A stretch of 64,000 nt of DNA from a virus. Below, piece by piece: positions 1,759 through 54,981 of this stretch; position 1 is the first letter of the stretch, and every line of letters begins with the position of its first letter. The notes below the pieces were generated by a model. The model worked only from the letters and a program-made list of their open reading frames with translations. It was not told the DNA's origin and ran no database searches. The translations under genes were made by a program, and so were the position numbers. Location of the stretch: IMG/VR virus record IMGVR_UViG_3300044655_001643; one strand, written 5' to 3'.

Positions 1759-2538
1759 TTATCCTAAACCGAAAATCGAATTTCCAGTAATTACTGTATA
1801 AGAGTTTGCTGCCGTTTTGAACACAGAATAACTGAACAAGTTTATTTCTTGATTCGTAATAGAAGCACTGCCTGGTCTTGTATTTCCAACATAGTATAAC
1901 GTTTGAAGAGCGCCATCAATATATAGATTTGCCGCATGTCTTGTTGAACCATGTTTCAGCGCAATCGCAACTGTCATTGCTTGACCAATTGTTGTGATTG
2001 AATCAAAAGTATTTTGTGTGTTCGCACGAAAATTAAAAGTCACATTTGCCGTGGTATTTGCATTGAAATAATACAGAGTGTTATTAGCAACGTCTATATT
2101 GACATTACCTCCAATGCCAAGAGTGTTTACATTTGCTTGTTCTAAAACTCTGGAAAGAGAGATGTTTAGATTTGATGCTAATAAGTTCGACGAAACTGAT
2201 GAAACTGCAATCAAGTTGCCCGTGATTTGACCAGCAACAATGTTGTTACCCCTAATGCTATCTGGTGCCATATCATCACCAGTAATAGTTTGATTCGCAA
2301 GTAAATTGCCAGTAATTGTTCCCGCAACAATATTATTACCTCGAATAGCACCTACTGTAATGTTGTTTCCACTAATAGCGGAAGTTGCAAGTAGATTGCC
2401 AGTAATTTGGCCAGCAACAATGTTGTTACCACGAATAGCATCTACTGTAATGTTGTTTCCGCTAATTGCAGAAGTTGCAATCAAATTACCAGTAATATTT
2501 GCTGTACTGATTAGAGGTGAACGAACTCTTTGAATCAT
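1759..2538 (-). CDS. Fibre linker protein: GNNI/GNLI repeat stalk plus C-terminal beta domain
   Basis: About ten IxGNxIxxxx repeats; the C-terminal domain is paralogous to 2871..3425 and 58260..58919. Confidence 0.7.
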   Translation of the reverse strand: MIQRVRSPLISTANITGNLIATSAISGNNITVDAIRGNNIVAGQITGNLLATSAISGNNITVGAIRGNNIVAGTITGNLLANQTITGDDMAPDSIRGNNIVAGQITGNLIAVSSVSSNLLASNLNISLSRVLEQANVNTLGIGGNVNIDVANNTLYYFNANTTANVTFNFRANTQNTFDSITTIGQAMTVAIALKHGSTRHAANLYIDGALQTLYYVGNTRPGSASITNQEINLFSYSVFKTAANSYTVITGNSIFGLG

Positions 2539-2862
2539 TTACATGCCTCCAAATAAAAATACATCATCAAATATGTCTGGAGGAGATACGATGTTATTTC
2601 CAGAAACAGCATTATTTGCAATAAGATCACCCGAAATAGCACCAGTTGCAATCAAATTGCCAGTAATCGTGCCAGCGACAATATTGTTACCACGAATACT
2701 GTTTGGTGCCATGTCGTCACCAGTAACAGTTTGATTTGCAAGTAAATTGCCAGTAATCGTGCCAGCGACAATATTGTTACCACGAATAGCGTTAGTCGCA
2801 ATCTTGTTTCCAATGACTGCACCATTTGCTATACGACCCGATTCGACTTTTTGTTCTGACAT
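2539..2862 (-). CDS. Short fibre linker protein: repeat stalk ending DDVFLFGGM
   Basis: GNNIVAGTITGNLLA repeats; C-terminus nearly identical to that of 20547..21215. Confidence 0.7.
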   Translation of the reverse strand: MSEQKVESGRIANGAVIGNKIATNAIRGNNIVAGTITGNLLANQTVTGDDMAPNSIRGNNIVAGTITGNLIATGAISGDLIANNAVSGNNIVSPPDIFDDVFLFGGM

Positions 2863-2870
2863 TTGCTACC

Positions 2871-3425
2871 TTATGGATTTTGATTTAACGCTCTTTGAAA
2901 ACTAGAGTTTGCTGCTAAAATTGTATATGTATTTGCCGCTGTTTTCATAACTGTAAATGAATAAGCATCAACTGATTCTTGTTGTGATGTTGCAAATCCT
3001 GGTGCTGAATTACCTAACCAAAACGGCGCTTGCAATACACCATCAACATAAACATTCGCACGATATCTTATTGCTCCCTGCTTCAGTAAAATGCCAGTAG
3101 TAACCGACTGACCCACTGACAACTGAGAGTCTAATGTATTTTGTGTATTCGCTCTCAAATTGAAAGTTACATTTGCTGTTGTGTTCGATGAAAAGAAATA
3201 AAGAGTATTATTTTGTAAATCTATGTTTACATTTCCACCAACAGCCGTTGAATACACGTTTGCAGTTTCAAATATTTGCGTCAAAGATATTTGTAAATTT
3301 GCAGCAAAAGTATTTGACGATAACGAACGAGCAACAATGTTGTTACTGCGAACGGAGTTATCTGCAAGTTTTAGACCTGTAATTGCAGTGTTTGCTATTC
3401 TATTTGAACCTACTCTTTGTGTCAT
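2871..3425 (-). CDS. Fibre linker protein (paralogue of 1759..2538)
   Basis: Shares the GGNVNID..NNTLYFF..NTTANVTFN..ANTQNT domain and the YSF.V.KTAANTY motif. Confidence 0.7.
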   Translation of the reverse strand: MTQRVGSNRIANTAITGLKLADNSVRSNNIVARSLSSNTFAANLQISLTQIFETANVYSTAVGGNVNIDLQNNTLYFFSSNTTANVTFNLRANTQNTLDSQLSVGQSVTTGILLKQGAIRYRANVYVDGVLQAPFWLGNSAPGFATSQQESVDAYSFTVMKTAANTYTILAANSSFQRALNQNP

Positions 3426-3447
3426 TTTTTATTCCGTATTTTGTTAG

Positions 3448-3455
3448 TATTTAGA
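3448..3455 (-). promoter_or_regulatory. T4-type late promoter variant TCTAAATA
   Basis: TAAATA core about 20 nt upstream of the 3425 start. Confidence 0.55.
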
Positions 3456-3456
3456 A

Positions 3457-6400
3457 CTAACCTCCAAATACAAGAGCCATCGCAATTGCTTTACCTGTCG
3501 ATGCCGCAGTATTGGCGGCATTAAACGCTGAATTGGCGTGATTATATGCTCCATTGATAGTTGAATTGACACCGGATGATAATTTAGCTGTCGTTACAGA
3601 ACCATCTGGTATGACAATAGTATTTGCTGCTGTGTAAAACGTTGCAACACGAACAAGTTCGCCATTCACTGGTGCTTCTGTAAATGTAATGCTGTTTGCA
3701 CTTGGATTGACGCTGTATGAAGTTAGTGGTTGAACCACACCATCAACCGTAACAAGTAACGTTTCTTTCGCTTGTGGGTTGAATCCTAAGTCAAAGGTTG
3801 TAAAGTTTCCATTTGAAGTTGTCTCAAATACCGAAACTGAAACATTTGAATTTATGTAGATATTTTGAACAAAGTAAGGATTGATTTTTTCAAAACCAAC
3901 CACACGGATGTTTTCACCATCACCAGGAGCTGTGCCAAATGTAACAGTATTCGTTGATGGATTTACAGAGTAAGCACTCTCTGGTTGTAAAATACCACCA
4001 ATCGAAACAAAGATTGCTTTATCAGATTCTGGTCTAAATCCTACATTGAATGCTGTAGATATTCCATCGCCAATATTGTTGTATGTTGAAACAACAGCAC
4101 CAGCAGAGTTGGCAACATCTAAGAAATAAGGAACTACGTTATTGAAACCAGCAACACGAATCTTTTCTCCTGCCGGTGGTGGTTCGTTAAACGAAATAGA
4201 ATTATTCGTTCTTGTTACAACATAATCATCAAATTCAGACTGAACAATACCACCAATCGAAACAATTACAGCACTATTTGATGCTGGCGCAAATCCTAAA
4301 GCAAAAGTTGAAACAGAACCATTTGCCGTTGTGGTAAAGGTAGAAACTTCAGCATTAGCGCCAGTGTTTGCTTTGTCAAACGCCGCATTTGCTTGTATGA
4401 AAGCTGCATTTGCTTGACCACGAACCCAAGGATCAGATGCATTATTTGCTGCATTGAAAGCTGCATTTGCATGAATGAACGACGAATTTGCTTGAATGAA
4501 TGCCGCATTGGCAGTATCAAATGCCGGCTGAACTTGTGGTGCTACATTGTTTGCCGAATTGAATGCTGCATTTGCATGAGCGTATGCTGAGTTTGCTTGA
4601 ATGAATCCACTATTCGCATGAACAAACGCCGAGTTTGCATATTGACTACCAGAATTTGCAGTTGCAAATGCACTGTTTGCATATGTACCACCAGAATTAG
4701 CAGCAGCAAATCCTGCATTAGCAGCGTTATATGCATCATTCGCATGGAAGAATGCTGAGTTTGCTTGAATAAATCCACTATTAGCAACTATAAACGAAGC
4801 ATTCGCATATACTGAAGCAGAGTTAGCATTGTTGTTTGCAATATTTGCTTGAGCAAATGCACCATTGGCATAGATTGCAGCAGAGTTTGCAGTGTAACTT
4901 GGTGTGTTAGCGTAAATCGATACTGTGTTCAGGTCAGCGTATGCAGAGTTTGCATGAATGAATGCGGCATTAGCAGTGTTGAATGCTGGTTGAACTTGCG
5001 GTGCTACATTGTTTGCCGAATTGAATGCGGCGTTAGCGTGATTGTATGCTGCATTAGCATATTGACCAGTTGTGTTCTGTGCATTGAACGCTGACTGTGC
5101 ATGAACTATTGCACCGTTAGCTTGAATGAACGCCGCATTTGCAGTATCAAATGATGGTTGTACTTGTGGTGCTACATTGTTGGCAGCAGCAAAAGCGGCG
5201 TTGGCATGGTTAAATGACGCATTTGCTTGAATGAATGCTGAGTTGCCTGTGTCATATGCACCACGTGTAAATCCAATTACACTTACACCATTAACCGCAA
5301 GAGTACCGAATACATTCGTAGTACCACCAGCATTACCAATATTAACAGTTGTTGCGGCACCACCCATACGAATTGTGGTAGCAGTTGTATTGAATATTAC
5401 GCCAATGAGTGATGCAGCAAGTATAGATGAAGTTGTTACAGATTGACCAAATGATCCTAGTTGAGCAAAAACTGTTTGTAGTCCAGGATGATATGTCAGT
5501 CCTGTGTTAGCACCGATGATAAGATTACCAGTTGTAGCATCAAGCAAAGCAACATTATAACTTCTAGAGCCGGCTTTAGATTCTACTCTCACATAGTTCG
5601 CCACATTGGCAGTTCCTGCTTCCACGCTATTATTAGCAATAGAGTTTGCTAAGTTGTATCCGGTATTTGCTTGAATGAACGCTGCATTTGCATACTGACC
5701 TGTAGCATTCTGAGATTCGTATGCTGAATTGGCGTGTAAGAATGCTGCATTAGCATAAGTGCCGGCAGCAGAATTAGCTGCTATGAAAGCTGCATTAGCA
5801 TGAATAAATGCCGCATTAGCATATTGACCGGTAGCATTCTGCGATTGATAAGCAGCATTAGCGTGAACAAAACCAGAATTGGCATGAATGAATGATGCAT
5901 TCGTCAAATCAAAAATGATATTCGTTCTTGGTAGAATATCAATGTTTTTGATTGTAATGAATGTTGAACGTAAATTGGCGTGTAGTGTATCAGTTATAAA
6001 CGATGGATCATTGATATCAACATTGTTTTCACCACCAATTTCTGGAGTGTAACCTTTAAATAAATGCCATTCTTTTGTTCCTGCATCACGAATTAGACCA
6101 GAGTGTGCATTTGTGCCATCATTATAATGACCAGCAAAACCTAAATCTTTCAGATCAGAAAAATAATTACCAGAACCAAGTATAATGAGAGTATCATTTG
6201 ATACTAATGTGCTTGCATTAATGCTGACAACTTGACCAGTAACAAAAAGGTTACCAACGGAAAGATTCTGAGTAACAGTTAAGTTACCAGTAATTACACC
6301 GCCACCATTGGCATCAATCGAATTATTTGCACGAATGAACGCAGCATTGGCATATTGACCTGTTGCATTCTGGCTTTCATATGCACTGTTAGAATGAATG

Positions 6401-8703
6401 AACGCTGAGTTCGCATGAATGAATGCTGAGTTAGTTGAGTCTCTGGCAACATTATCAATACCATAACCAATAAACGCAGTGTTCTGTTTTGTAGTATCTG
6501 GGAATGTTATCTGACCATCTGTACCAAAATCCCATGTATATGTACCAGCGGCTTGAATATGTGATCCACCTGGATCGGCCCATATAACCGATTGGTCAGC
6601 ATAATTCATTCTTACATAACCAGTGCCACCGTTATTGTTATATAAATCAATACCATTGGGGTAACCACTTCTGCCAATCTGTCCAGATGATCCCGGTAAT
6701 GTTATTGTACCATCATCATCAAAGGTAAAACTTTTTGTTGGTGAATCAAAAAGACCTTGATTTGTCTGAATAAGAACACCAGTTTTACCATATAATACTG
6801 CTTGACCAGCATTGTCCAAATATATTCCAGTATTGCCACTTTGTGCATTTGCTGTTATTGATAATAAACCATCACCCTGATTGGTAATTCTTGCTTTGGA
6901 TGGTTGAAATAATAAATTACCAGGAAGACCGAATACACCGTTTGAATATAACTGTGCAGTATTACCACTGTTGACTAAGTTTGCTTTGTCTGTATTTGCT
7001 TGATTGTACGCAGCATTTGCCCAAATAAATGCAGCATTAGCATATTGACCTGTTGCATTCTGACTTAGATATGCGGCATTTGCATGACCAAAACTTGCAT
7101 TTGCTTGAATAAATCCACTGTTTGCATGAATGTATGCAGCGTTAGCGGCAGCAAAAGCACCATTTGCATTAGCAAAAGCAGAGTTGGCTCCGGCAAAAGC
7201 AGCGTTAGCGTTGGCAAAGGCAGCATTCGCAGCAGCAAGCGCAGCATTCGATTGTGCATATGCAAGTGATGAGTAGATGTATAAATCTACATTACCGTTT
7301 GCTGCAAAAATGTAATTCGTAAAAATAGCATTAGCACCTGTAATGCTACCGTTTGAACCTGTTGTTGTTAGTGTATTTGATGTGACATTACCAACAATAA
7401 CAACATCACCAGTAACTTGACCGCCAACATTCGCATTCAGTGAATTGTTTGCACGAATGAATGCTGCGTTAGCCGTGTTGAACGATACATTCGCCATTGC
7501 AAAAGCGCCATTGGCATTTGCAAAAGCGGCGTTAGCTCTAGCAAAAGCACCGTTAGCATTGGCAAAAGCAGCGTTAGCGGCAGCAAAGGCACCATTGGCA
7601 TTTGCAAAGGCAGCGTTCGCTACATTACCCGTTGCATTCTGTGAACGGTATGCAGCATTTGCTTGAATAAATCCAGAGTTAGCATGAATGAATGCGCCAT
7701 TAGCGACAGTGAACGCAGCATTAGCGTATTCACCACTAGAGTTTTGACTTTCGTATGCTGAGTTAGCTTTGACAAATGCCGCATTAGCATGGTCGAACCC
7801 AGAGTTAGCATGTGCAAAGTTTGCATTTGCTAAGGTGAAGGCAGAATTGGTATACTGACCAGTTGCATTCTGTGAGATATACGCTGCATTTGCATGAGCA
7901 AAACTAGCGTTAGTCTGAATAAATGCGCTATTAGCGTGGATGAATGCAGCATTAGCCGTATCATAAGCTGGCTGAACTTGCGGGAATACATTATTGGCAG
8001 CAGCAAATGCAGCATTAGCGTGAACGAAAGCTGCATTGGCTTGAATGAATCCGGAATTGGCAGTATTGAACGCTGGTTGTATTTGAGGGAATACATTATT
8101 CGCAGCAGCAAAAGACGCATTTGCATGGTCAAAAGATGCATTGGCTTTGATGAATGCCGAGTTTGCATATGATGCTGTTGCTGAACCACCTAAGTCATCA
8201 TAGTTTGTACCATCATTTGTGAACTGCCACTTGTTACCAGTTTCATTCCACAACAAATAAACATTCGGTTGTGCGCCACGGTCAATCTCAATACCAGCAT
8301 TCATTGTCGGCTGTGCAGACTGATTGATTGCCGTATTCAATGAGATAATATTATCACCAATCATTACAACAGGTGTGTTTCCACCAATTGCACCACCAAC
8401 AATATTCAGATTACCTTGAATGGTAATGTCACCCGAAATAACACCACCAGTGTTTACATTCAGTGAGTTATTCGCACGAACGAACGCAGCATTTGCAGTA
8501 TTGAACGCAGAGTTTGTATGATTATATGAAGATGTGCCACGAACATATGAATCATATCCACCAATGGCAATAGCACCATTTTCTGCTGGACTACCAATGA
8601 AAAGTGTATTACTGCTATATGAATACGCTGGTTCACCAATGTTTAGTGCTACTGGTGTATTTGATACTAGCGAACGCTTTATTTGAATTGGTGTATTTGC
8701 CAT
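3457..8703 (-). CDS. Long fibre protein: Mtd-N-like head, ANAAF heptad coiled coil, three Ig-like repeats
   Basis: N-terminal IQIKRS...LNIGEPAYSYSSNTLFIG; dozens of ANAAFxx heptads; three C-terminal (G/N)G..T.F.LGF.P....V...G..Q...Y.V.....I.F...P..GE.IRV repeats; ends GKAIAMALVFGG. Confidence 0.8.
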   Translation of the reverse strand: MANTPIQIKRSLVSNTPVALNIGEPAYSYSSNTLFIGSPAENGAIAIGGYDSYVRGTSSYNHTNSAFNTANAAFVRANNSLNVNTGGVISGDITIQGNLNIVGGAIGGNTPVVMIGDNIISLNTAINQSAQPTMNAGIEIDRGAQPNVYLLWNETGNKWQFTNDGTNYDDLGGSATASYANSAFIKANASFDHANASFAAANNVFPQIQPAFNTANSGFIQANAAFVHANAAFAAANNVFPQVQPAYDTANAAFIHANSAFIQTNASFAHANAAYISQNATGQYTNSAFTLANANFAHANSGFDHANAAFVKANSAYESQNSSGEYANAAFTVANGAFIHANSGFIQANAAYRSQNATGNVANAAFANANGAFAAANAAFANANGAFARANAAFANANGAFAMANVSFNTANAAFIRANNSLNANVGGQVTGDVVIVGNVTSNTLTTTGSNGSITGANAIFTNYIFAANGNVDLYIYSSLAYAQSNAALAAANAAFANANAAFAGANSAFANANGAFAAANAAYIHANSGFIQANASFGHANAAYLSQNATGQYANAAFIWANAAYNQANTDKANLVNSGNTAQLYSNGVFGLPGNLLFQPSKARITNQGDGLLSITANAQSGNTGIYLDNAGQAVLYGKTGVLIQTNQGLFDSPTKSFTFDDDGTITLPGSSGQIGRSGYPNGIDLYNNNGGTGYVRMNYADQSVIWADPGGSHIQAAGTYTWDFGTDGQITFPDTTKQNTAFIGYGIDNVARDSTNSAFIHANSAFIHSNSAYESQNATGQYANAAFIRANNSIDANGGGVITGNLTVTQNLSVGNLFVTGQVVSINASTLVSNDTLIILGSGNYFSDLKDLGFAGHYNDGTNAHSGLIRDAGTKEWHLFKGYTPEIGGENNVDINDPSFITDTLHANLRSTFITIKNIDILPRTNIIFDLTNASFIHANSGFVHANAAYQSQNATGQYANAAFIHANAAFIAANSAAGTYANAAFLHANSAYESQNATGQYANAAFIQANTGYNLANSIANNSVEAGTANVANYVRVESKAGSRSYNVALLDATTGNLIIGANTGLTYHPGLQTVFAQLGSFGQSVTTSSILAASLIGVIFNTTATTIRMGGAATTVNIGNAGGTTNVFGTLAVNGVSVIGFTRGAYDTGNSAFIQANASFNHANAAFAAANNVAPQVQPSFDTANAAFIQANGAIVHAQSAFNAQNTTGQYANAAYNHANAAFNSANNVAPQVQPAFNTANAAFIHANSAYADLNTVSIYANTPSYTANSAAIYANGAFAQANIANNNANSASVYANASFIVANSGFIQANSAFFHANDAYNAANAGFAAANSGGTYANSAFATANSGSQYANSAFVHANSGFIQANSAYAHANAAFNSANNVAPQVQPAFDTANAAFIQANSSFIHANAAFNAANNASDPWVRGQANAAFIQANAAFDKANTGANAEVSTFTTTANGSVSTFALGFAPASNSAVIVSIGGIVQSEFDDYVVTRTNNSISFNEPPPAGEKIRVAGFNNVVPYFLDVANSAGAVVSTYNNIGDGISTAFNVGFRPESDKAIFVSIGGILQPESAYSVNPSTNTVTFGTAPGDGENIRVVGFEKINPYFVQNIYINSNVSVSVFETTSNGNFTTFDLGFNPQAKETLLVTVDGVVQPLTSYSVNPSANSITFTEAPVNGELVRVATFYTAANTIVIPDGSVTTAKLSSGVNSTINGAYNHANSAFNAANTAASTGKAIAMALVFGG

Positions 8704-8712
8704 TTGTAATTC

Positions 8713-8934
8713 TTAGAATATTCCACCGTCTAGTTGATCTAAAACGGAAGTAGCAATTTTTGTCTCGAACCGATTATTTGCAGAACTATACACTAATGAA
8801 AATCCATCTTGCACACCATCAGTATTTACATCATTGATTTCGTTCAATGCCACATTAGGCTTAGGACTATACTTTGGTGATACAACGGTTGTGCGATTTG
8901 GCTGAAATACTGTGACTTTACCTAAATCTGGCAT
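8713..8934 (-). CDS. Small structural linker ending LDGGIF
   Basis: LNEINDV...DGFSLVY motif typical of fibre stalks; lies in a late operon. Confidence 0.55.
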   Translation of the reverse strand: MPDLGKVTVFQPNRTTVVSPKYSPKPNVALNEINDVNTDGVQDGFSLVYSSANNRFETKIATSVLDQLDGGIF

Positions 8935-8937
8935 GAC

Positions 8938-9273
8938 TTACCTCGTAACAGATGGAAGAACTGTAGCAGTACCTTCGACTACACGTGTTACAGAATTATC
9001 GATTGAGTTTGTAATCTTTAGATCATAAACATAACGACCAGGTGTCAAATTACTTGTGTTTGCTGCTGTCATTGAAAGAGTAATTTGACCATTTGCATTT
9101 CCTGTAATGATCGCTGTCAGTGTATTTGCTGATGAAGAGTAATAAGATTTGCGTAGTTGAGCAGATGCCGAATATGTCGCAAGATTGATAGCATCACCTT
9201 GGGTATCATTTACTGTCACAGTGGATGTGAGATTTGCACCTTGCTCAATCGTGATTTCTACATATGCTGCCAA
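8938..9273 (-). CDS. BppU-N-like small virion anchor protein (TTG start)
   Basis: IEQGA...INL..YSASAQLRKSY...ITLSMTAANTSNL.PGRYVYDL...RVVEG...V.PSVTR; AAGGAG SD upstream. Confidence 0.7.
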   Translation of the reverse strand: MAAYVEITIEQGANLTSTVTVNDTQGDAINLATYSASAQLRKSYYSSSANTLTAIITGNANGQITLSMTAANTSNLTPGRYVYDLKITNSIDNSVTRVVEGTATVLPSVTR

Positions 9274-9294
9274 GATTGTCTCCTTCTAATCGTC

Positions 9295-9302
9295 TATTTA
9301 GT
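9295..9302 (-). promoter_or_regulatory. Late promoter variant ACTAAATA
   Basis: TAAATA core directly after a terminator, at the start of an operon. Confidence 0.6.
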
Positions 9303-9317
9303 CAATCTCGGAAGCGT

Positions 9318-9354: not shown

Positions 9355-9365
9355 GTTTATAAAAA

Positions 9366-9707
9366 TTATGCGTTTAGTGCATCAAGTCTGTTCCAAACCC
9401 AATTTGCTGCGGCTTCTGGATCAAAAGGAACTGTTGCAGTTGGATCTTCTGTATTTGAAAAGTCAGGTTGAGTCCATGAAGAGCCGACACTTGTGAGATA
9501 TGCTTGCAAATCTTCTTTTGTAGCAATAGTTTCAAAATCACCAGTTGCAGTATCTACAGAAATACCAATCATAACAGCATCTCTTGGTGATGGTGTAGAA
9601 GGATCGGCAACGGCATACATGCCGCCAACGCCATCTTCTCCTAGATACAGAAAATCTGGTACAGTTCCTTCTTGAGTGAGTCTATACTTAATGCAAAGAT
9701 GTGCCAT
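9366..9707 (-). CDS. Hypothetical acidic protein, last gene of the propeller cassette
   Basis: 113 aa; overlaps the upstream GT stop; SD GGAG. Confidence 0.6.
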   Translation of the reverse strand: MAHLCIKYRLTQEGTVPDFLYLGEDGVGGMYAVADPSTPSPRDAVMIGISVDTATGDFETIATKEDLQAYLTSVGSSWTQPDFSNTEDPTATVPFDPEAAANWVWNRLDALNA

Positions 9708-10431: not shown

Positions 10432-10450
10432 AATATTATTCCTTGTTAGT

Positions 10451-13262: not shown

Positions 13263-14200
13263 TATTGAAGTCCTCCGTTACCAGATGAAGTTGCAGCACC
13301 TCCACTAGCGACAACAGTTAAGTCACCAAAGTCTATAGCATTTCCTGTTGTGGCAATTGTTACATATTGAATCGTGTTTACTGCAACAGTTGTATATCCT
13401 CCTGCAAAAATTCCTCTTGTTGGGTTAGAGGTAGAAGCCATATATCCAGTTGGGGTCAGCAAATCACCAAAATCAGTAAAGTTTCCAATAGTGGCGATTG
13501 TTACATAATCTATTATATTTGTAAGATCACCGCCAGCCATTAAGCCTCGAACTCCGTTTGAACAGCCCTGTACTCCTTGTTTGGTAGCATTGGTACCAGT
13601 CAAGTTTCCGAATGTTGTACCATTTCCTGTCGTTGCTATAGTCACATATTCACAAGCGACTGTTGGACCACCCGTTGTTGATAAGTTTGCTATTGCCCTA
13701 GTAGAAGAAAAAGTAGAGCCTCCATAGTTCACAGCGGTAGACAAAGTTCCAAAACTAGTCACTGATCCGGTTGTAGCGATGGTGACATATTCAATGAGGT
13801 TATTACTGCCTTCACCGCCGATTATCAAACCACGGGTTGTTGAGTTTGCTCCAGTTGCCCCGTTGTGTTGTTGAGCTGCAAGGGCTCCCCAATCTATTGC
13901 ATTGCCCTGTGTTGCAATGGTGACGTAGCTGACAATCTGTCTAGAATAATAACCACCGGCAAATATGGCACGGGTGCTAGAACCAAATCCAGCAAGTCCC
14001 CAAGTTGCATAAAGAAGGTCACCAAAATCTGTAGCGTTTCCAGTAGATGCCACCGCAACATAACTAATTACATTATTGTCGCCAAGAGTCGATATATTAC
14101 CACCTGCAATAAGCGCACGTGAAGTATCATTGGTCCACTGATTCTGTCCCACTGCTTGAAATACTGCTGGAAGACTCCATACACCAGAATAACTAGGCAT
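13262..14200 (-). CDS. Kelch-like beta-propeller adhesin (6 repeats)
   Basis: Six DFGDL-type repeats; N-terminal SGVWSL motif. Confidence 0.75.
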   Translation of the reverse strand: MPSYSGVWSLPAVFQAVGQNQWTNDTSRALIAGGNISTLGDNNVISYVAVASTGNATDFGDLLYATWGLAGFGSSTRAIFAGGYYSRQIVSYVTIATQGNAIDWGALAAQQHNGATGANSTTRGLIIGGEGSNNLIEYVTIATTGSVTSFGTLSTAVNYGGSTFSSTRAIANLSTTGGPTVACEYVTIATTGNGTTFGNLTGTNATKQGVQGCSNGVRGLMAGGDLTNIIDYVTIATIGNFTDFGDLLTPTGYMASTSNPTRGIFAGGYTTVAVNTIQYVTIATTGNAIDFGDLTVVASGGAATSSGNGGLQ

Positions 14201-15357
14201 TATAGACCTCCGTTAGCGTTGGAACAGCCTGCTATCCCAAAAACGCTGTTAACCAAATCACCAAAATCAGTAGCATTTCCAGTAGACGCTATCGTTACAT
14301 AATCGATGACGTTACCGCCACCAGCCCCTCCAGCAAATACACCTCGTGTTGTGTTTGATGTTGAGCCTATGTAATACCTCCCTACTGTGAGATCGCCAAA
14401 GTCTATGGAATTACCCGTAGAAGCTATGGTGATATACTGTATGGTATTTTGATTCCCTGCGTTGCCTGCCTGTGCGCCAAAAAGTCCACGTGTAGATGAA
14501 CCACATCCAGCTAAACCATAATCAGCACCAAGCAAATCCCCAAAGTCTGTCGCATTTCCCACTGAAGAAATTGTTACATAGTCAATAATATTTGTTAGGG
14601 CTGCTCCTGTTCCGCCTGCAAAAACACCACGTGTAGGTGAAGAGCATGCCGCAAGTGTTGAAGAAGCTCTAGTCATATCTCCAAAATCTGTGGAATTTCC
14701 AATCGATGCATATGTAATGTATTGAATTACGTTGCTGCCAAGTCCTGTACCACCACCAGCAAAAAGGCCTCTAGTTGAAGAACCACATCCAGCTGGACCC
14801 TCTGCACTACCAAGCAAATCTCCAAAATCAGTAGCGTTGCCAACAGATGCAATAGTCACGTAGTCCACAACATTTTGACCAGACCCGCCACCAAAAACTC
14901 CACGGGTAGCGGAGGCGCAGGCAGCAATGTAATTTCTTGAAACTGTTAAATCGCCAAAATCAGTAGCGTTGCTAGTAGATGCTATGGTAATGTATTGAAT
15001 TACGTTCGTACCGCCACCAGCAAACAAACCTCTAATTCCAACAGGAGTTACACTTTCACTCACTTCACTAAAGGGGCTAGGACCATAACTATTTAACGCC
15101 CAAACACGAAACGTATATGGTGTGTCGTTAGTCAGACCTGTAACTGTAATAGGAGAAGAAGAACCAGTCGCTGCTACACCAGTATTTGAAACAGCGTAGT
15201 ATGCAGTAATGGCAGCTCCGCCAATGTTCGATGGTGCAGTAAAAGTGACGGATGCTTCAGCGTCACCACCTGTTGCTGTGCCAATCGTTGGCGCATTAGG
15301 AACCTGTAGTGGATTATAGAAAGCTGATATAAAACCAGCTATGCGACGACCTGGCAT
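14200..15357 (-). CDS. FN3 domain plus Kelch-like propeller adhesin (6 repeats)
   Basis: PNAPTIGTAT...VTFTAP..GG..IT.Y...ITVTGLTN...YTFRVWALN..G (FN3), followed by six DFGDL repeats. Confidence 0.78.
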   Translation of the reverse strand: MPGRRIAGFISAFYNPLQVPNAPTIGTATGGDAEASVTFTAPSNIGGAAITAYYAVSNTGVAATGSSSPITVTGLTNDTPYTFRVWALNSYGPSPFSEVSESVTPVGIRGLFAGGGTNVIQYITIASTSNATDFGDLTVSRNYIAACASATRGVFGGGSGQNVVDYVTIASVGNATDFGDLLGSAEGPAGCGSSTRGLFAGGGTGLGSNVIQYITYASIGNSTDFGDMTRASSTLAACSSPTRGVFAGGTGAALTNIIDYVTISSVGNATDFGDLLGADYGLAGCGSSTRGLFGAQAGNAGNQNTIQYITIASTGNSIDFGDLTVGRYYIGSTSNTTRGVFAGGAGGGNVIDYVTIASTGNATDFGDLVNSVFGIAGCSNANGGL

Positions 15358-15363
15358 TTTATA

Positions 15364-15747
15364 TTAGCTAATCGTTTCGTATGAACAAGTAAATGTCAAA
15401 GAGTTTGCTGAACTACTCTGTACCCATACCATACTTGCTTCACCCGTAACAGTGGTGTCTAACAAATAAAATGATGTACTTTTGTCCAGTAACACTAGCG
15501 TTGCATCAGCAGGAACTGAAATCGTGTTTGCAATCGAACGGTATGTTGTACCGTCTGCAAGACGAAGTTCCACTGTGCAATCGTATGCAGTTGCTGGATC
15601 CAGATTTGCTACAATGATTGTGTTGATTTTATGTGTCGCACCTGATGCAGGCGCTGCAACCAATCCTTGTCGTGCAGTGTTTGCTGGCGTAAGTGTCACT
15701 GTATGTGGTACAATGGTAGTTACGTTTACAATATTAGGTGCGGCCAT
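15364..15747 (-). CDS. Small beta-sandwich adaptor, type C (MAAPNIVNV...)
   Basis: Paralogous pattern I.VAN...ISVPA.ATL...SYETIS. Confidence 0.65.
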   Translation of the reverse strand: MAAPNIVNVTTIVPHTVTLTPANTARQGLVAAPASGATHKINTIIVANLDPATAYDCTVELRLADGTTYRSIANTISVPADATLVLLDKSTSFYLLDTTVTGEASMVWVQSSSANSLTFTCSYETIS

Positions 15748-15750
15748 TTA

Positions 15751-16323
15751 TTATGCTCCAAAAATAATTGATCCTATAAATCCTGAACTTAGGATTTTTG
15801 AGTTTGCTGAAGAAGAAAATTGATTTGCTGAAATTGATGTCTCGGCAATGAGATTACCAGTGATTTGCCCTGCAACGATGTTATTGCCACGAATTGCATT
15901 CGCAACGATGTTGTTACCCGACACAGCATTGTCTGCAATCAAGTTACCCGTAATCGTACCAGCAACGATGTTATTGCCACGAATTGCATTGACTGTGATA
16001 TTGTTACCAGAAACTGCACCACTTGCAAGTTTTACACCCGTAACAGAACCATCTGATGGTACTTGTGTTGTTGTACCATTACCAAGATGATGAATAATGA
16101 CATTGTTTGTACCAGTACCGGGTGCAACTGTAAATGTGATAACAGCACCATTCAACGAATAGTCGAAGCCAGGTCTTTGATATACACCATTGACATACAC
16201 AGCAATAGATGCTGTGCCTGCTGGTGACCTTGCCAATGTGCCAAAAGCAACAGTGCTACCGTCACCGTTGTAAACATCAACGATATAAGGTACTGATGTA
16301 ACTTGATTGCCAATATAAGACAT
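15751..16323 (-). CDS. Fibre linker: MSYIGN start, Ig-like domain, repeat stalk, IIFGA end
   Basis: GDGSTVAF...VYVNGVYQRP...FTVAP domain followed by GNNIVAGTITGNLIA repeats. Confidence 0.7.
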   Translation of the reverse strand: MSYIGNQVTSVPYIVDVYNGDGSTVAFGTLARSPAGTASIAVYVNGVYQRPGFDYSLNGAVITFTVAPGTGTNNVIIHHLGNGTTTQVPSDGSVTGVKLASGAVSGNNITVNAIRGNNIVAGTITGNLIADNAVSGNNIVANAIRGNNIVAGQITGNLIAETSISANQFSSSANSKILSSGFIGSIIFGA

Positions 16324-16342
16324 TTATATTCCTGTTTTTACT

Positions 16343-16762
16343 TTATTTATTTGACCTTGATGGCGGTTCACCATCAGGTGCAGGATATTGTTCGTTCACC
16401 AATTTGATTGTACGATAAAAGTCTGATTCTTTTCCTGGAATCTGCTCTTTATCAATTGCATTCCACAACATATTGAATAATACTGTGATGTCAGGATATG
16501 CTTGATACCGATCATAAAAGTGTTGCCAGTAATCACAAAATCTTTGTTGAAACTCTAATTCTTCTTCTATTTCTTCTTGTGTTGGTGGTGACAATCCTTC
16601 TTCATCTTGCCACTCACCAAAAATATAATTACCATCTTGTTGTGATAAACCATACTTTGCAGTTGGTCTAAGCGCACGAATTGCTGATTGTGGGTTACAT
16701 GAAAACTTTTTATTTTCATGATCAATCAAAAACTGCGAATAAAATATTTCTTCGTTATTCAT
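16343..16762 (-). CDS. Hypothetical acidic protein, possible fibre chaperone
   Basis: ALRP...W......PPTQEEIEEEL...R..AYP pattern seen in fibre-associated small proteins; late promoter AGTAAATA at 16784..16791. Confidence 0.5.
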   Translation of the reverse strand: MNNEEIFYSQFLIDHENKKFSCNPQSAIRALRPTAKYGLSQQDGNYIFGEWQDEEGLSPPTQEEIEEELEFQQRFCDYWQHFYDRYQAYPDITVLFNMLWNAIDKEQIPGKESDFYRTIKLVNEQYPAPDGEPPSRSNK

Positions 16763-16790
16763 TCAATCACCTTTCATTTTATGTATTTAC

Positions 16791-17270
16791 TTATGGCTGT
16801 TCTGGCCACTGAATAGTCCAAGGGAAGCCTTCTTGCTCAGAAATGTCACGCAGTGCTTGACGATATGTAGCCCATGCTGCTTTATCAGCAGTTGAATCTT
16901 CCAATTGTGTCCAATCAGATTGCGACAGTCTTTGATTGCGTGTCTGACGAACAGCACTTGCTTGCTCGGCATCTTTTCTTGCTTTATATTCTGCTTCTTG
17001 TTCAGCAGCAGTTTTTTCTTCATTGTCAGTGAAGATTGGTCCTAGTACATACTTAGTGTACCATTTTCCATCTTCTTGCTGTTCAATGCCAGCAAATTGA
17101 CTGTATTGATAAACTGTGCCACCAGATGCTTGTGGTCCTTCAAATACAGAATCAACGCCATTTGCTTCCATCCATTCAAGAGTAATTGGAAAAGGAGCAT
17201 GTGGCAAAGTGCCACGTAGAGCTTGATCTGTTGCAAAGTATTCGCCTGTTGATTGTAATCTGTATCCCAT
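16791..17270 (-). CDS. Tail fibre assembly chaperone
   Basis: C-terminal RNQRLSQSDWTQLED...WATYRQALRDI..QEGFPWTIQWP. Confidence 0.8.
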   Translation of the reverse strand: MGYRLQSTGEYFATDQALRGTLPHAPFPITLEWMEANGVDSVFEGPQASGGTVYQYSQFAGIEQQEDGKWYTKYVLGPIFTDNEEKTAAEQEAEYKARKDAEQASAVRQTRNQRLSQSDWTQLEDSTADKAAWATYRQALRDISEQEGFPWTIQWPEQP

Positions 17271-17295
17271 GATTGTTTCCTATTGAAAAATTGTT

Positions 17296-20187
17296 TTATG
17301 CGATTGCCATGTAAATAAATTTTGGGTTTGATACGTAGATATCGCCATCACCGTTTCCTAGTATACACATCTCGTTTCCATATGCAACACATAAAAGCGG
17401 CGGAGTGCTGCCGGCGGATCCGCCGGTTGACCAAGTAATTCCGTCAGAGGAATAACCAGTCTCACCTGCCGTGGCGACTGCAACAAATCTATTATCCGTC
17501 CAAACAACGCCTCGGATGTTATTGCCAGACAAGGCGCCAGGGCTTCTGCTTGTCCATGTGATCAAATCTGGTGATGTTCTTGTGACTCCACTATTACCCA
17601 TCGCTACGTAAAGGTTATTTCCATAAGCGATGGCATAATAATCGTCGGTAGCGCCGCCAGTGTTTTGAACTGTAAAGTTAATACCGTCAGCTGAGGAAAC
17701 CAATGCACCGTTGTTACCTGCGAATACAAGAATTCCATTTAATAATTTGACGACATTTAAAGTTTGAGCAGTGCCGATTGATACCGTTGACCAAGTAACA
17801 CCATCGGTCGAAGAAACTACTGTTCCACTTACACCACATGCCCAATATTTACCGAATGCGTAAGCAGCACTCGTCAAATTACTCGCTGTACCACTAGTTC
17901 TTGTAGTCCAAGTCGTTAGGTTGGAGGAGGTGGATATTCTCCCACCGTCACCAACAGCTAAATAAAGGCCATTACCATAGGCCACACCATTGATAGCCGT
18001 GCTGACACCAGTGAGAACTGCGGAGGTTGTAGTCCACGAATACCCGGAAGTAGAGTATCTGATGTTATTACCTGAATCCCCAAACACCCAATAACCATTC
18101 TCGTACATGATGTCTAAAATATCAAGAGTACCTGCAACAGCAGCTTGCACCTCCCAATTATCGGCGTATGACCCATTAAGATTCTCAGGTGCTGTGCTGG
18201 TTATTTCAAACCCTAATGAGTATGGGTCTATGTAATCAGTAGAAGTGTTTTCAGCAGTGTTTGAATTAAGGGCAAACCAAGGATCATTTCCTGCGACGAT
18301 ACCTCTGGCACTATCGTACACATACGTAAGACCACTTGTTAGTAAAGACCTGATTAAAATGAACCGAGCGCCTGATGTAAACCCGCAGTCCACTTGATTT
18401 GTATTACCCGAACCTTTGCCGACGTAATAGGATACTTTTGATACGCCCGGCACTGAGCCAAACAAATATGCTACTAGACTCGCAGCCGAATCGTTAACGC
18501 CCGTCAGTGTGCCAACAGTAAACACTGATGCCGTCGGTGCAGTATTGTTAAATGCGGTGACACCACCCTCAGGTTGACTTTGACTGTTCAAATTTAACCA
18601 AGCAGTCGGCCCAAGTGTGTTGGTGTAAACAATCCAGTCCCGAGTTCCGGTTGATGATTTGATCCACATCATCTGCGGAACCGCACCGAGGTTATGTGGG
18701 ACTGTTCGAGTTACACCACTACCGGTGTAGGTCACAACATCAAAAAATCCTGGCGCACGTGCAAACGCTTCCACTACTTGGTTACTAGCAACAGTGCTTG
18801 CATTCAAATCCGCTATTCCATCATTACCGACACCAAAACCATTCATCGCAGAGAAAGAATTGCCGTATCCTACTGTCGGCGTCATCAAGGAATCTGCGTC
18901 GGTAACACCTGGCGCCGTGGCGCCAGTCTCCAAATATTGGTTTCCTCTTAATCTATCACCCATCACCATGCCCGAGATGCCCGTCGTATCTCTTTGACGA
19001 GCCATAATCATGTCTGTCAAAATGCCAGTAGGAACTAATCTATTATCTACGTTTGTTCCGGTGTATACAAAAGGCTGAAACACTTTACTAGCATCTGTTG
19101 GTGTTCTCATCGGACCACGACGAATGGCGATGTAGGCAAAGTTATATCCAGCAGTTCCACCTCCATTTAATGCACTGGAAACAGTAAATCCAGTGGCAGT
19201 TGGTCGTATCCATGAAGCACCGAAACTTGCTTCTGCGTCAACAGAATTCGCATAGACATATGAATTGTCCGCTAAAGTCATTTCACGTATAACATCAAAT
19301 ATAAATCCACCAGTAACCGCACCTGATGTAGTGCTTCTAACATATATCCATTGTGGCTCATAACCAAGATTTATGTCTTGCGTAGCACCTGTTGTCGAAG
19401 TATAGCTTCCACAACTAATCACATTGTCCGTGCCAGTAAGACCAAAGCCACCTGCATTGTGAGCGAATACGTATGCAACGTATGTGCTTCCTGCCACACC
19501 ACCAAAATTGGACAAATTAAAGTCAAATGATGTGCTGGTAACGTTTTCACACACCGTTCCAGAAATCGCTGCGGCCGTATCATTTAGATAGAAATATTGA
19601 GAAGCTGTACTTCGATGGTAAACCTGCCAGTTCCCAGTACCGTTTGTCCGTTTAATAAAAATACATCCCGGAATGGAACCTAAAGAATGGTTCACTGTTA
19701 GCAATCCAGAAGCAACTCCGGGTTGAGTAAACGTCACAACATCAAAGAAATTTGGCTGCTGGCGGAATGTCCATGATGTATAACGAGCATTGTTTACACC
19801 TATTCCAGTTGCACTATCGACCGTAAATCCATTAGCGTTAAATGCAGTCAGGCTATTGGCAAGAGAAACCTCTGCACCAGTCGTGTCGCTGTTTATCTCA
19901 TCCGTAACGCCTCGTTCTGTATCAAACAAAAAATTACTAGTTGCCGTACTTCTGCCTTTGATCCAAACTAATCCACCTTTACCCAACAAATCAATTTCGT
20001 TAGTAATGTTTTGGGAGGCTCCAGTGCCTGTATACAAGTACGTCGAAAATACTTCTTCGATGTAATTACGAATTGCAGGTGCCGAAGGAAAAGGAAAACG
20101 TCTAAGGCTCAGTCGATTTGAACTGAACTTATATGTTGATAACTTTTTACTCTGAAGAGTACCTACAGTGGCTCTTTTTAGGCTCAT
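17296..20187 (-). CDS. Large receptor-binding/fibre tip protein with inserted BNR-like propeller
   Basis: Repeated YTG.G domains paralogous to 52948..54957, plus S.DG.TW repeats near the C-terminus. Confidence 0.72.
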   Translation of the reverse strand: MSLKRATVGTLQSKKLSTYKFSSNRLSLRRFPFPSAPAIRNYIEEVFSTYLYTGTGASQNITNEIDLLGKGGLVWIKGRSTATSNFLFDTERGVTDEINSDTTGAEVSLANSLTAFNANGFTVDSATGIGVNNARYTSWTFRQQPNFFDVVTFTQPGVASGLLTVNHSLGSIPGCIFIKRTNGTGNWQVYHRSTASQYFYLNDTAAAISGTVCENVTSTSFDFNLSNFGGVAGSTYVAYVFAHNAGGFGLTGTDNVISCGSYTSTTGATQDINLGYEPQWIYVRSTTSGAVTGGFIFDVIREMTLADNSYVYANSVDAEASFGASWIRPTATGFTVSSALNGGGTAGYNFAYIAIRRGPMRTPTDASKVFQPFVYTGTNVDNRLVPTGILTDMIMARQRDTTGISGMVMGDRLRGNQYLETGATAPGVTDADSLMTPTVGYGNSFSAMNGFGVGNDGIADLNASTVASNQVVEAFARAPGFFDVVTYTGSGVTRTVPHNLGAVPQMMWIKSSTGTRDWIVYTNTLGPTAWLNLNSQSQPEGGVTAFNNTAPTASVFTVGTLTGVNDSAASLVAYLFGSVPGVSKVSYYVGKGSGNTNQVDCGFTSGARFILIRSLLTSGLTYVYDSARGIVAGNDPWFALNSNTAENTSTDYIDPYSLGFEITSTAPENLNGSYADNWEVQAAVAGTLDILDIMYENGYWVFGDSGNNIRYSTSGYSWTTTSAVLTGVSTAINGVAYGNGLYLAVGDGGRISTSSNLTTWTTRTSGTASNLTSAAYAFGKYWACGVSGTVVSSTDGVTWSTVSIGTAQTLNVVKLLNGILVFAGNNGALVSSADGINFTVQNTGGATDDYYAIAYGNNLYVAMGNSGVTRTSPDLITWTSRSPGALSGNNIRGVVWTDNRFVAVATAGETGYSSDGITWSTGGSAGSTPPLLCVAYGNEMCILGNGDGDIYVSNPKFIYMAIA

Positions 20188-20189
20188 TC

Positions 20190-20528
20190 TTAGTAGACTT
20201 CAGTGCCAAATGCGGAGAACGATAAGAGTGAACTGTTTGCATTGACAGAAACAATAGAGCCTGCATTGAGAGTAACACCCAAAGTCAGCGTAACTGTATC
20301 TCTTCCTGGCACATTGACACTGTATGCAAGATAGTTTGCATTTGCCACAGCAACACCTGAAGCGTTAGCTGCAATTCTAAATGCACCACCGTTTGCAGCG
20401 CCTTCATCCAGGTTTGCTACAGTGATTGATGAAATGATAGCAGAATTGCCCGCTGGCACTGTGTAAAGAGTGCTGAGTACATTTGCTGTCGGATTTCTTT
20501 GTCCTAAAATTTTATATGCTCTTGCCAT
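20190..20528 (-). CDS. Small beta-sandwich adaptor, type B (MARAYKILGQ...)
   Basis: LYTVPAG..AIISSITVAN...VNVPG...SFSAFGTEVY. Confidence 0.65.
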   Translation of the reverse strand: MARAYKILGQRNPTANVLSTLYTVPAGNSAIISSITVANLDEGAANGGAFRIAANASGVAVANANYLAYSVNVPGRDTVTLTLGVTLNAGSIVSVNANSSLLSFSAFGTEVY

Positions 20529-20546
20529 TTGTTAGTTTTCCTTTGT

Positions 20547-21215
20547 TTACATTCCACCAAATAAAAATGCATCATCAAATATGTCTGGAGGTGATACGAT
20601 GTTATTTCCAGAGATTGCATTATCTGCGATTAGATTACCTGTAATTGTTCCCTCAACAATATTGTTAGCACGAATAATACCTTCAGCCAATTCATTACCA
20701 GTAATTGCACCATCTGCAATTAGATTACCTGTGATTGTACCTGCAACAATATTATTAGCACGAATTGAATTTTCTGTAATGTTATTTCCACTTACCGAAG
20801 TCACACCTAGTTTTACACCCGTAACACTACCATCTGCAATATCTGATGCAATCACTGTTCCTGGTGCAATCTTACTGCTCGTCACAGAGTTATCTGCAAG
20901 TGCTCCTGTAGTAACTGCATTTGCTTGAAGTTGACTTGCAGAAACTTGATTGAACGTCAGTGTAATTGGTGATGTATAGTTCACCAAAATGTTTTCTGTT
21001 CCTAGAGATGGCGCTTCAGTAAATGTAACAATACCTGAAGAAACATTATACGATGCTATTGGTGTTTGTAATACACTGTTGACAACAACTAAAATCGCAT
21101 TGGCATCATCAATAGTTCTTGACAAAGTGAACTGAGTGCAAGCACCTGTACCGCTAAACTTGTCTACTTTAGCAGTAAAAACGTTGACTTCAGGGCTATT
21201 GCCAATATATGCCAT
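20547..21215 (-). CDS. Fibre linker: MAYIGN start, Ig-like domain, repeat stalk, DDAFLFGGM end
   Basis: Same architecture as 15751..16323, with the C-terminus of 2539..2862. Confidence 0.7.
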   Translation of the reverse strand: MAYIGNSPEVNVFTAKVDKFSGTGACTQFTLSRTIDDANAILVVVNSVLQTPIASYNVSSGIVTFTEAPSLGTENILVNYTSPITLTFNQVSASQLQANAVTTGALADNSVTSSKIAPGTVIASDIADGSVTGVKLGVTSVSGNNITENSIRANNIVAGTITGNLIADGAITGNELAEGIIRANNIVEGTITGNLIADNAISGNNIVSPPDIFDDAFLFGGM

Positions 21216-21547
21216 TAGGTAATCTCCAGAATTGAAACAATAACGTCTGCTGATGATGCGATTGAAGTGTTGACTTGTAGATAGTCACCTGATTCAAGCA
21301 CTAGTTTTTGATCGCCGCCGACTGGCACTAAAGCACCACCAGGTGCCACTGTCGCTTCTTTGACCAGATAAACATTACCAGTAATATTGCCTCCACTTAG
21401 AATGACATTTGCAGAAATTGGTGTAGCAGTAATGTTGGCAATTGTCATACCAATTACCGTTGCTTGTACGCCAGCACCAGCTGCATAAGCATTCTGCGCT
21501 GTTGTTCCAGCAGCTTTGAGTGTTTGATTTTTGAAAGTATTAGCCAT
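21215..21547 (-). CDS. Small beta-sandwich adaptor, type A (MANTFKN...)
   Basis: TVIGMTIAN...ATVAPGGAL...QKLVLESGDYLQV...SILEIT. Confidence 0.65.
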   Translation of the reverse strand: MANTFKNQTLKAAGTTAQNAYAAGAGVQATVIGMTIANITATPISANVILSGGNITGNVYLVKEATVAPGGALVPVGGDQKLVLESGDYLQVNTSIASSADVIVSILEIT

Positions 21548-21576
21548 TAAATCCTCTGTTTTTCTTCAGTATTTAT

Positions 21577-21792
21577 TCAACCCAAAGCGATAGCAAAAGC
21601 AAGGGCATCATCAACAATAGAGTTATTTCCAGTTACAGTAAAGTCTCCACCAACAACTAAGTTTGTGTTAGCATAAAACGTGCCACCGACACCGTTTGTC
21701 AGATTATTCGCAACTGCAATCAGGTCTTGTGTTGAAACAAGCCACTGCTGGAAAGTATTTGCGGTAGTTACTTGATTAATATTCGCTGGCAT
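21577..21792 (-). CDS. Minimal fibre root protein ending DDALAFAIALG
   Basis: N-terminal V.TANTFQQW motif of T4-like fibre/whisker attachment segments; only 71 aa. Confidence 0.55.
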   Translation of the reverse strand: MPANINQVTTANTFQQWLVSTQDLIAVANNLTNGVGGTFYANTNLVVGGDFTVTGNNSIVDDALAFAIALG

Positions 21793-54957: not shown

Positions 54958-54981
54958 TTTTTACCTCTGTTTTATTTTTGA

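Follow-up and report, generated by a model that had tools for sequence, protein, structure and literature searches.

A candidate tag-adaptor-leader joint for segmented fibres in a marine T4-like myophage and other tailed phages

The long tail fibre of phage T4 (gp34-gp35-gp36-gp37) consists of separately encoded segments and small joint proteins, and the order of its genes is the order of its assembly. In other phages, receptor-binding proteins (RBPs) are docked onto T4gp10-like domains within a large anchor protein, as in SP6 and K1-5 (the gp37 adaptor), the KP32-type phages of Klebsiella (an anchor and a second RBP), G7C (gp63.1 and gp66) and CBA120 (TSP1-4). Here we describe a stretch of viral DNA of 64,000 nucleotides (IMG/VR record IMGVR_UViG_3300044655_001643; the whole stretch is called the window) in which, as we think probable though far from assured, fibre pieces are joined non-covalently by a joint of three parts. 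These would be a hydrophobic tag of about 10 residues at the C-terminus of the proximal piece, a separately encoded jelly-roll protein of about 110 amino acids (aa), which we call the adaptor, and a class-specific leader or domain at the N-terminus of the distal piece; three paralogous and mutually orthogonal versions of the joint would set the order of assembly, with a polarity that follows gene order. Exchangeable RBPs that dock via short conserved N-terminal peptides or domains on a conserved anchor are well described, as are their modular swapping and branching (PMC6872550, PMC8262889).

Comparing this locus with the described systems reveals both likenesses and differences. Like the T4 long tail fibre, the fibres of the window come in separately encoded segments with what appear to be small dedicated joint proteins. 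Unlike gp35 and gp36, the proposed connector is a jelly roll of about 110 aa that occurs in three orthogonal paralogous classes with terminal peptide tags and is found in podophages and siphophages as well; no gene of 1759-21792 matches a gp35/gp36-type family in Pfam, PHROG or NCBIfam. Likewise, in contrast to SP6/K1-5, the KP32-type phages, G7C and CBA120, a free-standing jelly roll would here bridge the hydrophobic C-terminal tag of one protein and the protein that follows, and Pfam and PHROG scans of the fibre-module proteins detected no gp10-like domain. The "chain-like fibre" of A1002 uses a different mechanism. Segmented fibres with joint proteins and tag-docked exchangeable RBPs are already known, and what this locus adds is an unnamed protein family with an architecture unlike theirs and what looks like a code of three classes. 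The initial annotation of the window had called the system undescribed, and this agrees with the lack of a Pfam or NCBIfam family, of a PDB homologue and of a description in the literature searched; our literature searches found no published account of a tag-adaptor-leader joint, although such an absence is unprovable.

Pairing of tags, adaptors and leaders

The window belongs to a marine T4-like myophage whose gp6 is 42% identical to that of Methylophilales phage Melnitz and 40% identical to that of pelagiphage HTVC008M; megablast of the region against deposited phage genomes returned zero matches and no near relative. On the minus strand the genes run in the order gp5, gp25, gp6, a baseplate wedge protein, gp8, a DUF4815 protein, the fibre open reading frames (ORFs) and gp13- and gp14-like neck genes. 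About 20 genes had been proposed to replace gp9-12 and wac at this place, and the module is indeed bounded by gp8/DUF4815 on one side and the gp13-like gene on the other, with 23 fibre-type ORFs, all on the minus strand, from 21792 down to 1759 (Table 1; genes are named below by their lower coordinate). Three times within it a tagged gene is followed by an adaptor gene (A1, A2 and A3), across gaps of 29, 18 and 3 nucleotides (nt), respectively. On re-reading, the ORFs, termini and coordinates given for these three pairs were all correct, and the two orphan tags that had been noted, on 2539 (DDVFLFGGM) and 3457 (GKAIAMALVFGG), are both present.

Comparative evidence for our reading comes from relatives. 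Relatives of each adaptor were taken from IMG/VR with 3-kb flanks, the neighbouring ORFs were read and the counts were made over distinct adaptor sequences; the regular expressions for tags and leaders were written after inspecting the data, and the loci are related. In class 1, a tag of the form ..(A/S)(L/I/V)AF(A/S)IALG precedes an adaptor starting MAN(T/N/S)FKN, which is followed by a leader M(A/S)YIGN or MQFTYIGN. The class 2 order is a tag DDAFLFGGM or PFLL(S/A/M)G(M/A), an adaptor MAxxYK(I/V)LGQ and a leader M(S/A/T)(L/I)(K/R/N)R, and that of class 3 a tag TGKAIAMA(I/L/M)(V/I)FG(G/F) or GF(V/I)GSIIFGA, an adaptor MAAPNIVNV and a leader Mx(K/R)(R)xxGG(F/I)I. The ORF directly upstream of the adaptor carries the cognate tag in 54 of 56 cases for class 1, 23 of 40 for class 2 and 61 of 65 for class 3, and in four further A2 loci an inserted gene separates the adaptor from a protein with the class-2 tag, which lies about 2 kb upstream. 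The background, taken over the remaining ORFs in these loci, is 1/2094, 8/1653 and 4/2440 for classes 1, 2 and 3 (at most 0.5%), so the pairing pattern is far beyond chance. This census of adjacency between motif and adaptor classes, proposed along with the initial annotation, thus gave class-specific pairing with zero cross-class neighbours, even though ORFs with class-1 and class-2 tags share 20 loci of each set. Judged by adjacency, the tags and the small proteins behave as three orthogonal sets: where two classes share a locus, each adaptor still adjoins the tag of its own class.

The leaders, which the initial annotation had left unlinked to the adaptors, extend the pattern downstream. 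An M(A/S)YIGN leader follows A1 in 45 of 57 cases, an MxLKR-type leader follows A2 in 20 of 41, and Mx(K/R)xxGGFI follows A3 in 34-35 of 65. The proteins upstream of the adaptors range from 47 to 968 aa and can be aligned only in their last ~10 residues; those downstream range from 131 to 964 aa and have in common only their N-terminus, a leader of 15 aa in classes 2 and 3 and a domain of about 70 aa in class 1.

Tags (C1-C3) and leaders (N1-N3) of the window proteins were scored with a position-specific scoring matrix for each class. The C1 matrix gave 29.9 for 21577 and at most -3.6 for every other window protein, C2 picked out 20547 (30.1) and 2539 (26.5), and C3 picked out 3457 (27.6) and 15751 (15.8), whose GFIGSIIFGA-type tag also precedes A3 in the close relatives L059-L063. 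For the leaders, N1 scored 41.3 on 20547 and more weakly on 15751, the two genes for which a shared M(A/S)YIGN N-terminus had been correctly noted; N2 was found on 17296 only (25.3, next best 2.5); and the top score of N3 was on 14200, to which 11343 is alike by eye. An alignment of homologues of 21577 shows conservation limited to the last ~10 residues. As to the bodies of these proteins, 20547 has PHROG tail-fibre matches, 17296 matches Pfam DUF7483 (E 1.8e-63) and 14200 matches Pfam fn3. The supply within the window is therefore two C2 tags, two C3 tags, two N1 leaders and two to three N3 leaders against one adaptor gene per class, and searching the window proteins with hidden Markov models (HMMs) of the classes found no fourth adaptor copy.

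Two further N-terminal classes had been described. The stalk genes starting MxQ(R/K)V or MPLDKI exist (1759, 2871, 2539 and 58260); as candidate class-2 leaders all four were rejected, since their N2 scores do not exceed about 2, compared with 25 for 17296. The SGVW(S/T)L class holds for 13262 and 11343 but is absent from 14200.

The tag-adaptor arrangement spans podo-, sipho- and myophages and diverse hosts. Full three-gene triads occur in podophage HTVC033P (gp66/65/64, in which gp66 ends ..GKAIAMAIVFG), roseophage CRP-9 (gp47/46/45), cyanosiphophage S-SKS1, Rhizobium myophage RHph_I1_18 and, twice in series, Melnitz, which also has an orphan 71-aa protein with a C1 tag before its neck gene. 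In podophage HTVC010P, gp23 ends ..PTALAIALG, gp24 starts MANTFK, and gp27, with an MAYIGR start, lies two genes further; in phiPsal1, an actinobacterial siphophage, the adaptor comes after a protein of 86 aa whose C-terminus reads ..ALMLMGG. Class-1 adaptors were not found in S-PM2, S-RSM4 or HTVC008M. In the podophages the tail-fibre annotation falls on the tagged gene, after which come the genes for the adaptor and the next protein; this order suggests a proximal-to-distal polarity for the joint.

It is worth considering whether such patterns need docking at all: the tag, the small gene and the leader might be an inherited cassette for recombination or translational coupling, with classes that reflect shared ancestry only. 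Within the window, 2539-2862 and 20547-21215 share 93% identity over their last 60 nt (2539-2600 and 20547-20610) and the identity decays upstream, which suggests a recent exchange or gene conversion at the class-2 tag and speaks for a cassette; furthermore, many of the loci are close relatives whose upstream bodies are linked by BLAST. However, the tags are conserved as protein even where adaptor identity falls to 40-47% and the bodies on either side have different lengths and N-termini, the arrangement extends over all three tail types, and natural fusions (see below) swap the tag or the leader for a covalent link. We therefore regard a bare cassette as very improbable.

The adaptor family and its natural fusions

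The three adaptors had been called paralogous. Pairwise BLAST among them gave nothing useful, but profile methods bear the claim out: hhalign aligned class 1 with class 2 at 96.7% (E 3.6e-10), class 3 with class 2 at 83.5% (E 8e-6, 98 columns) and class 3 with class 1 at 83%. In hmmsearch the class HMMs gave cross-class hits inside the window, and the class-3 HMM also matches A1; the single A3 sequence matched a profile only weakly. Both A1 (E 3.4e-9) and A2 (E 1.9e-7) match phrog_1276, and A3 has no PHROG match. By profile comparison, then, A1, A2 and A3 are distant paralogues. The family is large: an exhaustive search with class 2 alone gave 1393 representative clusters (50% identity) at E<=1e-3, and IMG/VR holds 261 relatives of A1 and at least 567 of A3. 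Pfam, NCBIfam and PDB sequence searches (the last with all three class profiles) gave no true homologue of any adaptor class, a PDB match to Tako8 having been discarded as a compositional artefact.

The AlphaFold2 model of A2 is a jelly roll of eight strands (predicted local distance difference test score, pLDDT, 94.9), and A1 probably has the same fold by its homology to A2. Among PDB folds the model resembles only generic small oligomeric jelly rolls (Z 8-10), namely nucleoplasmin cores, the trimeric cement protein of phage KHP40, the HFTV1 turret and Ena pilus subunits, and among the viral predictions of BFVD it resembles many uncharacterised phage proteins of about 110 aa (TM score 0.8-0.94). 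Some of the residues that are invariant or nearly so within each class are clustered at the two termini of the adaptor, in the first ~10 positions and several of the last ~8-10, and in the class-2 model these two clusters form neighbouring strands. Two members of the family, P0133 and P0171, have an N-terminus like that of a signal peptide, a hydrophobic stretch ending ..AAE, which hints that some adaptor relatives may be exported.

A small jelly roll at the end of a fibre could also be a lectin-like adhesin, terminal or lateral, and cap the tagged protein much as gp38 sits on gp37 in T2-type phages, the next gene then being an independent fibre. Jelly rolls often bind carbohydrate, the fold matches include carbohydrate-binding-module and TNF/C1q-like domains, one homologue is annotated as a "putative lectin", and in phiPsal1 the small protein is the last tail gene. 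Nonetheless, the adaptors are far better conserved than the variable distal proteins and rank with the best-conserved proteins of the module in phages of SAR11, Synechococcus, Roseobacter, Rhizobium and Actinobacteria. Such conservation across unrelated hosts is the opposite of what is expected for a receptor-binding tip, and the conserved leaders downstream, together with the fusions that put the adaptor domain at the N-terminus of variable RBP-like bodies, are more in keeping with a linker. A capping adhesin thus seems unlikely to us.

The fusions deserve attention, since a docking role predicts that a covalent link can replace the tag or the leader. An adaptor domain is found at the N-terminus of long leaderless RBP-like proteins (P0201, P0202, P0234, P0241 and P0183) and at the C-terminus of others (P0252 and P0238), and tandem double adaptor domains occur in the class-2 family. 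In P0213 the hydrophobic motif DDAFQFA plus 20 aa, and in P0208 the hydrophobic motif VLAAIIAGG plus a Gly8 linker, is tethered to the N-terminus of the adaptor. As read from their domain order, these fusions would have the tag dock close to the N-terminus of the adaptor and the distal fibre at the opposite, C-terminal end, and they fit the docking role.

It is also worth considering a contig from a metagenome (L304:3657-4426) that has two divergent adaptor-like genes in tandem, the second with a built-in hydrophobic motif and a Gly8 linker. The tandem precedes a 413-aa protein that resembles the "virion structural protein" of HMO-2011, which in HMO-2011 itself sits upstream of the adaptor; gene order is therefore not universal.

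The same fusions bear on another alternative, in which the small proteins are fibre assembly chaperones that bind the hydrophobic tag of the preceding protein during folding or trimerisation and are absent from the virion. A small gene directly after a fibre gene, whose product is expected at the fibre C-terminus, is the classic pattern of Tfa in lambda, Mu and P2 and of T2-type gp38; a hydrophobic C-terminal peptide would need shielding; and phiPsal1 has no distal partner after its small protein. However, the tagged proteins are often tiny stalks (47-99 aa) that lack a head in need of folding, a chaperone would not be expected to go with a class-specific leader on the gene that follows it, and some homologues are annotated as virion proteins, albeit under unverified names. 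Unlike Tfa and gp38, the adaptors have no similarity to Phage_tail_APC (A1, A2 and A3 match neither PF16778 nor the PHROG tail-fibre-assembly families), have another fibre gene after them whose leader matches, and elsewhere are fused to the N-termini of RBP-like proteins. Furthermore, the phage carries a separate bona fide chaperone after its terminal adhesin (16791-17270; PF16778, E 3.5e-22). We consider a pure chaperone role improbable.

The proposed joint and its limits

If the small jelly rolls are indeed docking adaptors, two chains can be drawn for the window. In the first, 21577 (C1) would be joined through A1 to 20547 (N1 at one end, C2 at the other) and through A2 to 17296 (N2), which has its own Tfa chaperone, 16791; in the second, 15751 (N1 and C3) would be joined through A3 to 14200 or 11343 (N3). 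The orphan tags beside single-copy adaptors make use in trans plausible, and, if the code holds, the excess of tags and leaders over adaptor genes means that the adaptors must serve 2539 (C2) and 3457 (C3) in trans, giving alternative or branched ends. Since 15751 also carries N1, it would compete with 20547 for the site on A1. Branching and alternative occupancy of symmetric sites are alike consistent with the window data.

As for the mode of docking, small and large hydrophobic residues take turns along the tag, which has a polar cap before them and a glycine at its end; this pattern would suit strand addition as well as a short buried helix. The predicted fold of P0208 suggests a helix, at low confidence: its adaptor part is confident and its N-terminal helix (aa 15-25) has a pLDDT of only 58-72. 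Prediction of a complex of three copies of 21577 and three of A1, with alignments, gave a median score of 0.30 against a mark of 0.32, in a run that had no controls, and speaks neither for nor against binding. The gene triads, their class specificity, the fold of A2, the distant paralogy of the adaptors, their wide distribution and the fusions are observed; we infer physical docking, trimeric stoichiometry, incorporation into the virion and branching.

Several observations weigh against the three-part joint and are best considered together. Binding is backed by no experiment and no confident model. The presence of adaptors in virions rests on product names; "virion structural protein" is the name given to some relatives, HTVC010P gp24 and BFVD matches among them, an annotation whose basis is unchecked. 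The C2 tag is missing from the ORF directly upstream in 17 of 40 A2 loci, an N1-like leader follows A3 in five loci, phiPsal1 has a tag and an adaptor with no obvious distal partner, and in HMO-2011 the adaptor homologue follows a protein that has no hydrophobic tag. Furthermore, the regular expressions define the classes post hoc, and the counts are swollen by shared ancestry and inherited synteny, so that independent origins are fewer than the numbers suggest. Most of the upstream bodies are linked by BLAST through fibre repeats, and when upstream and downstream bodies were clustered to count independent acquisitions, these repeats connected nearly everything.

We hesitate to extend the three-part joint too far. 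That the tags, adaptors and leaders form a portable orthogonal code of at least three classes, which directs how multi-segment, alternative or branched fibres assemble themselves and in which one adaptor serves several stalks and adhesins in trans, and that this code is used by a large share of aquatic tailed phages, is a tentative proposal that we would sooner doubt than adopt. The initial annotation had read the motifs as orthogonal connectors of a tree that ends in at least six adhesins, with adaptors reused in trans. This interpretation is partly supported: three orthogonal sets emerge by adjacency and trans use is plausible, while the tree and the count of six adhesins are conjecture.

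Other fibre genes and the meaning of the proposed joint

A second chain in the module, with an anchor (8938), a linker (8713) and a long fibre (3457), had also been proposed; it is present and conserved in relatives. The triad persists in IMG/VR down to 44% anchor identity and occurs in Melnitz, with a linker ending ..(D/N)GGx(F/Y) and a fibre start MANT(P/V)IQ(I/L)K kept among relatives. The anchor matches phrog_3304, "L-shaped tail fiber protein assembly" (E 1.2e-23), and its family comprises 121 phage records under that name, mostly from cyanomyophages. As with the collar protein p132 and the fibre pb1 of T5, a beta-rich protein of about 110 aa (8938) is encoded just before a long fibre gene; unlike p132 and pb1, an extra 73-aa linker ending ..DGGxF lies between them and there is no sequence match to solved chains, a phmmer search of the anchor against PDB chains, T5 included, having returned nothing relevant. 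A relation of the anchor to p132 is thus only a lead. Just before its C3 tag, the 3457 fibre matches Pfam Phage_T7_tail (PF03906) at aa 1621-1705 (28 bits against a cut-off of 25.2), and BLAST connects 20547 and 15751 to this domain (E 4e-6 and 3e-7, respectively). Pfam gave no match for these two MAYIGN proteins even at E<=1, and no T7-fibre match for the podophage fibres.

Between the DFGDL-repeat proteins and this second chain lies a stretch (9366-11293) in which a phrog_1574 protein (9688-10431), with no Pfam match, stands between genes for a putative coiled-coil protein of 280 aa and a protein of 113 aa. The label of GT-A glycosyltransferase that it had been given is unconfirmed; should the protein have this activity, a fibre might be its substrate. 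After the Tfa chaperone, 16343-16762 encodes an acidic protein of 139 aa (phrog_20715/9114) that may be a second assembly factor. A second fibre cluster (52948-58919, minus strand) lies about 30 kb from the main module and includes a paralogue of the stalk-plus-knob proteins 1759 and 2871; none of its genes carries a class 1-3 tag or leader. Adjoining it are putative sugar genes (59796-62013), read from their N-terminal sequence only.

Table 1. Coordinates of the fibre genes of the window and of their neighbours
Feature	Coordinates	Strand
gp8	27350-28906	-
DUF4815 protein, 1779 aa	22001-27340	-
Root stalk protein, 71 aa, class-1 tag DDALAFAIALG at C-terminus	21577-21792	-
Class-1 adaptor A1, 110 aa, MANTFKN..	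21215-21547	-
Putative extension piece, 222 aa: MAYIGN class-1 N-terminal domain, stalk repeats, class-2 tag DDAFLFGGM	20547-21215	-
Class-2 adaptor A2, 112 aa, MARAYKILGQ..	20190-20528	-
Putative distal fibre/adhesin, 963 aa: class-2 leader MSLKRATV.., DUF7483 domain	17296-20187	-
Canonical tail-fibre assembly chaperone (Phage_tail_APC)	16791-17270	-
Putative second extension piece (190 aa) starting MSYIGN, with stalk repeats and the tag GFIGSIIFGA of class-3 type	15751-16323	-
Class-3 adaptor A3, 127 aa, MAAPNIVNV..	15364-15747	-
Putative distal module, 385 aa: class-3 leader MPGRRIAGFISAFY, fn3 domain, DFGDL repeats	14200-15357	-
DFGDL-repeat protein starting at SGVWSL	13262-14200	-
DFGDL-repeat protein, N3-like leader then SGVWTL	11343-13262	-
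Anchor, 111 aa, phrog_1084/phrog_3304	8938-9273	-
Linker, 73 aa, ending ..LDGGIF	8713-8934	-
Fibre, 1748 aa, N-terminus MANTPIQIKRS, canonical class-3 tag GKAIAMALVFGG at C-terminus, no adaptor gene after	3457-8703	-
Stalk-plus-knob protein, MxQRV N-terminus	2871-3425	-
Stalk, 107 aa, ending in class-2 tag DDVFLFGGM, no adaptor gene after	2539-2862	-
Stalk-plus-knob protein, MxQRV N-terminus	1759-2538	-
gp13-like neck gene	803-1756	-
Stalk-plus-knob paralogue	58260-58919	-
962-aa protein, three LamG domains and a Gly_rich_2 domain	55369-58257	-
127-aa protein MAHFAKL.., resembles small genes after fibres in HTVC033P and Melnitz	54982-55365	-
669-aa DUF7483 paralogue of 17296	52948-54957	-
Sugar-nucleotide epimerase-like (N-terminal sequence)	59796-60767	
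dTDP-4-dehydrorhamnose epimerase-like (N-terminal sequence)	60764-61258	
Glycosyltransferase-like (N-terminal sequence)	61258-62013	

Host recognition is poorly understood in abundant ocean phages such as the HTVC010P-type pelagiphages, roseophages, cyanophages and Melnitz-type myophages, and many of their fibre-region genes, like those of the window, belong to no curated family or are called "hypothetical". If the grammar of tag, adaptor and leader is true, the architecture of such fibres, that is, which piece sits on which, could be read from sequence; the grammar would also mark the points at which RBP modules are exchanged and explain the orphan tags, the orphan leaders and the rapid swapping of tips. 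It would put a name to a large unnamed family, given the number of clusters that match one class alone. Finally, if the classes are truly orthogonal, they would offer ready-made connectors from nature with which chimeric fibres could be assembled in model phages.

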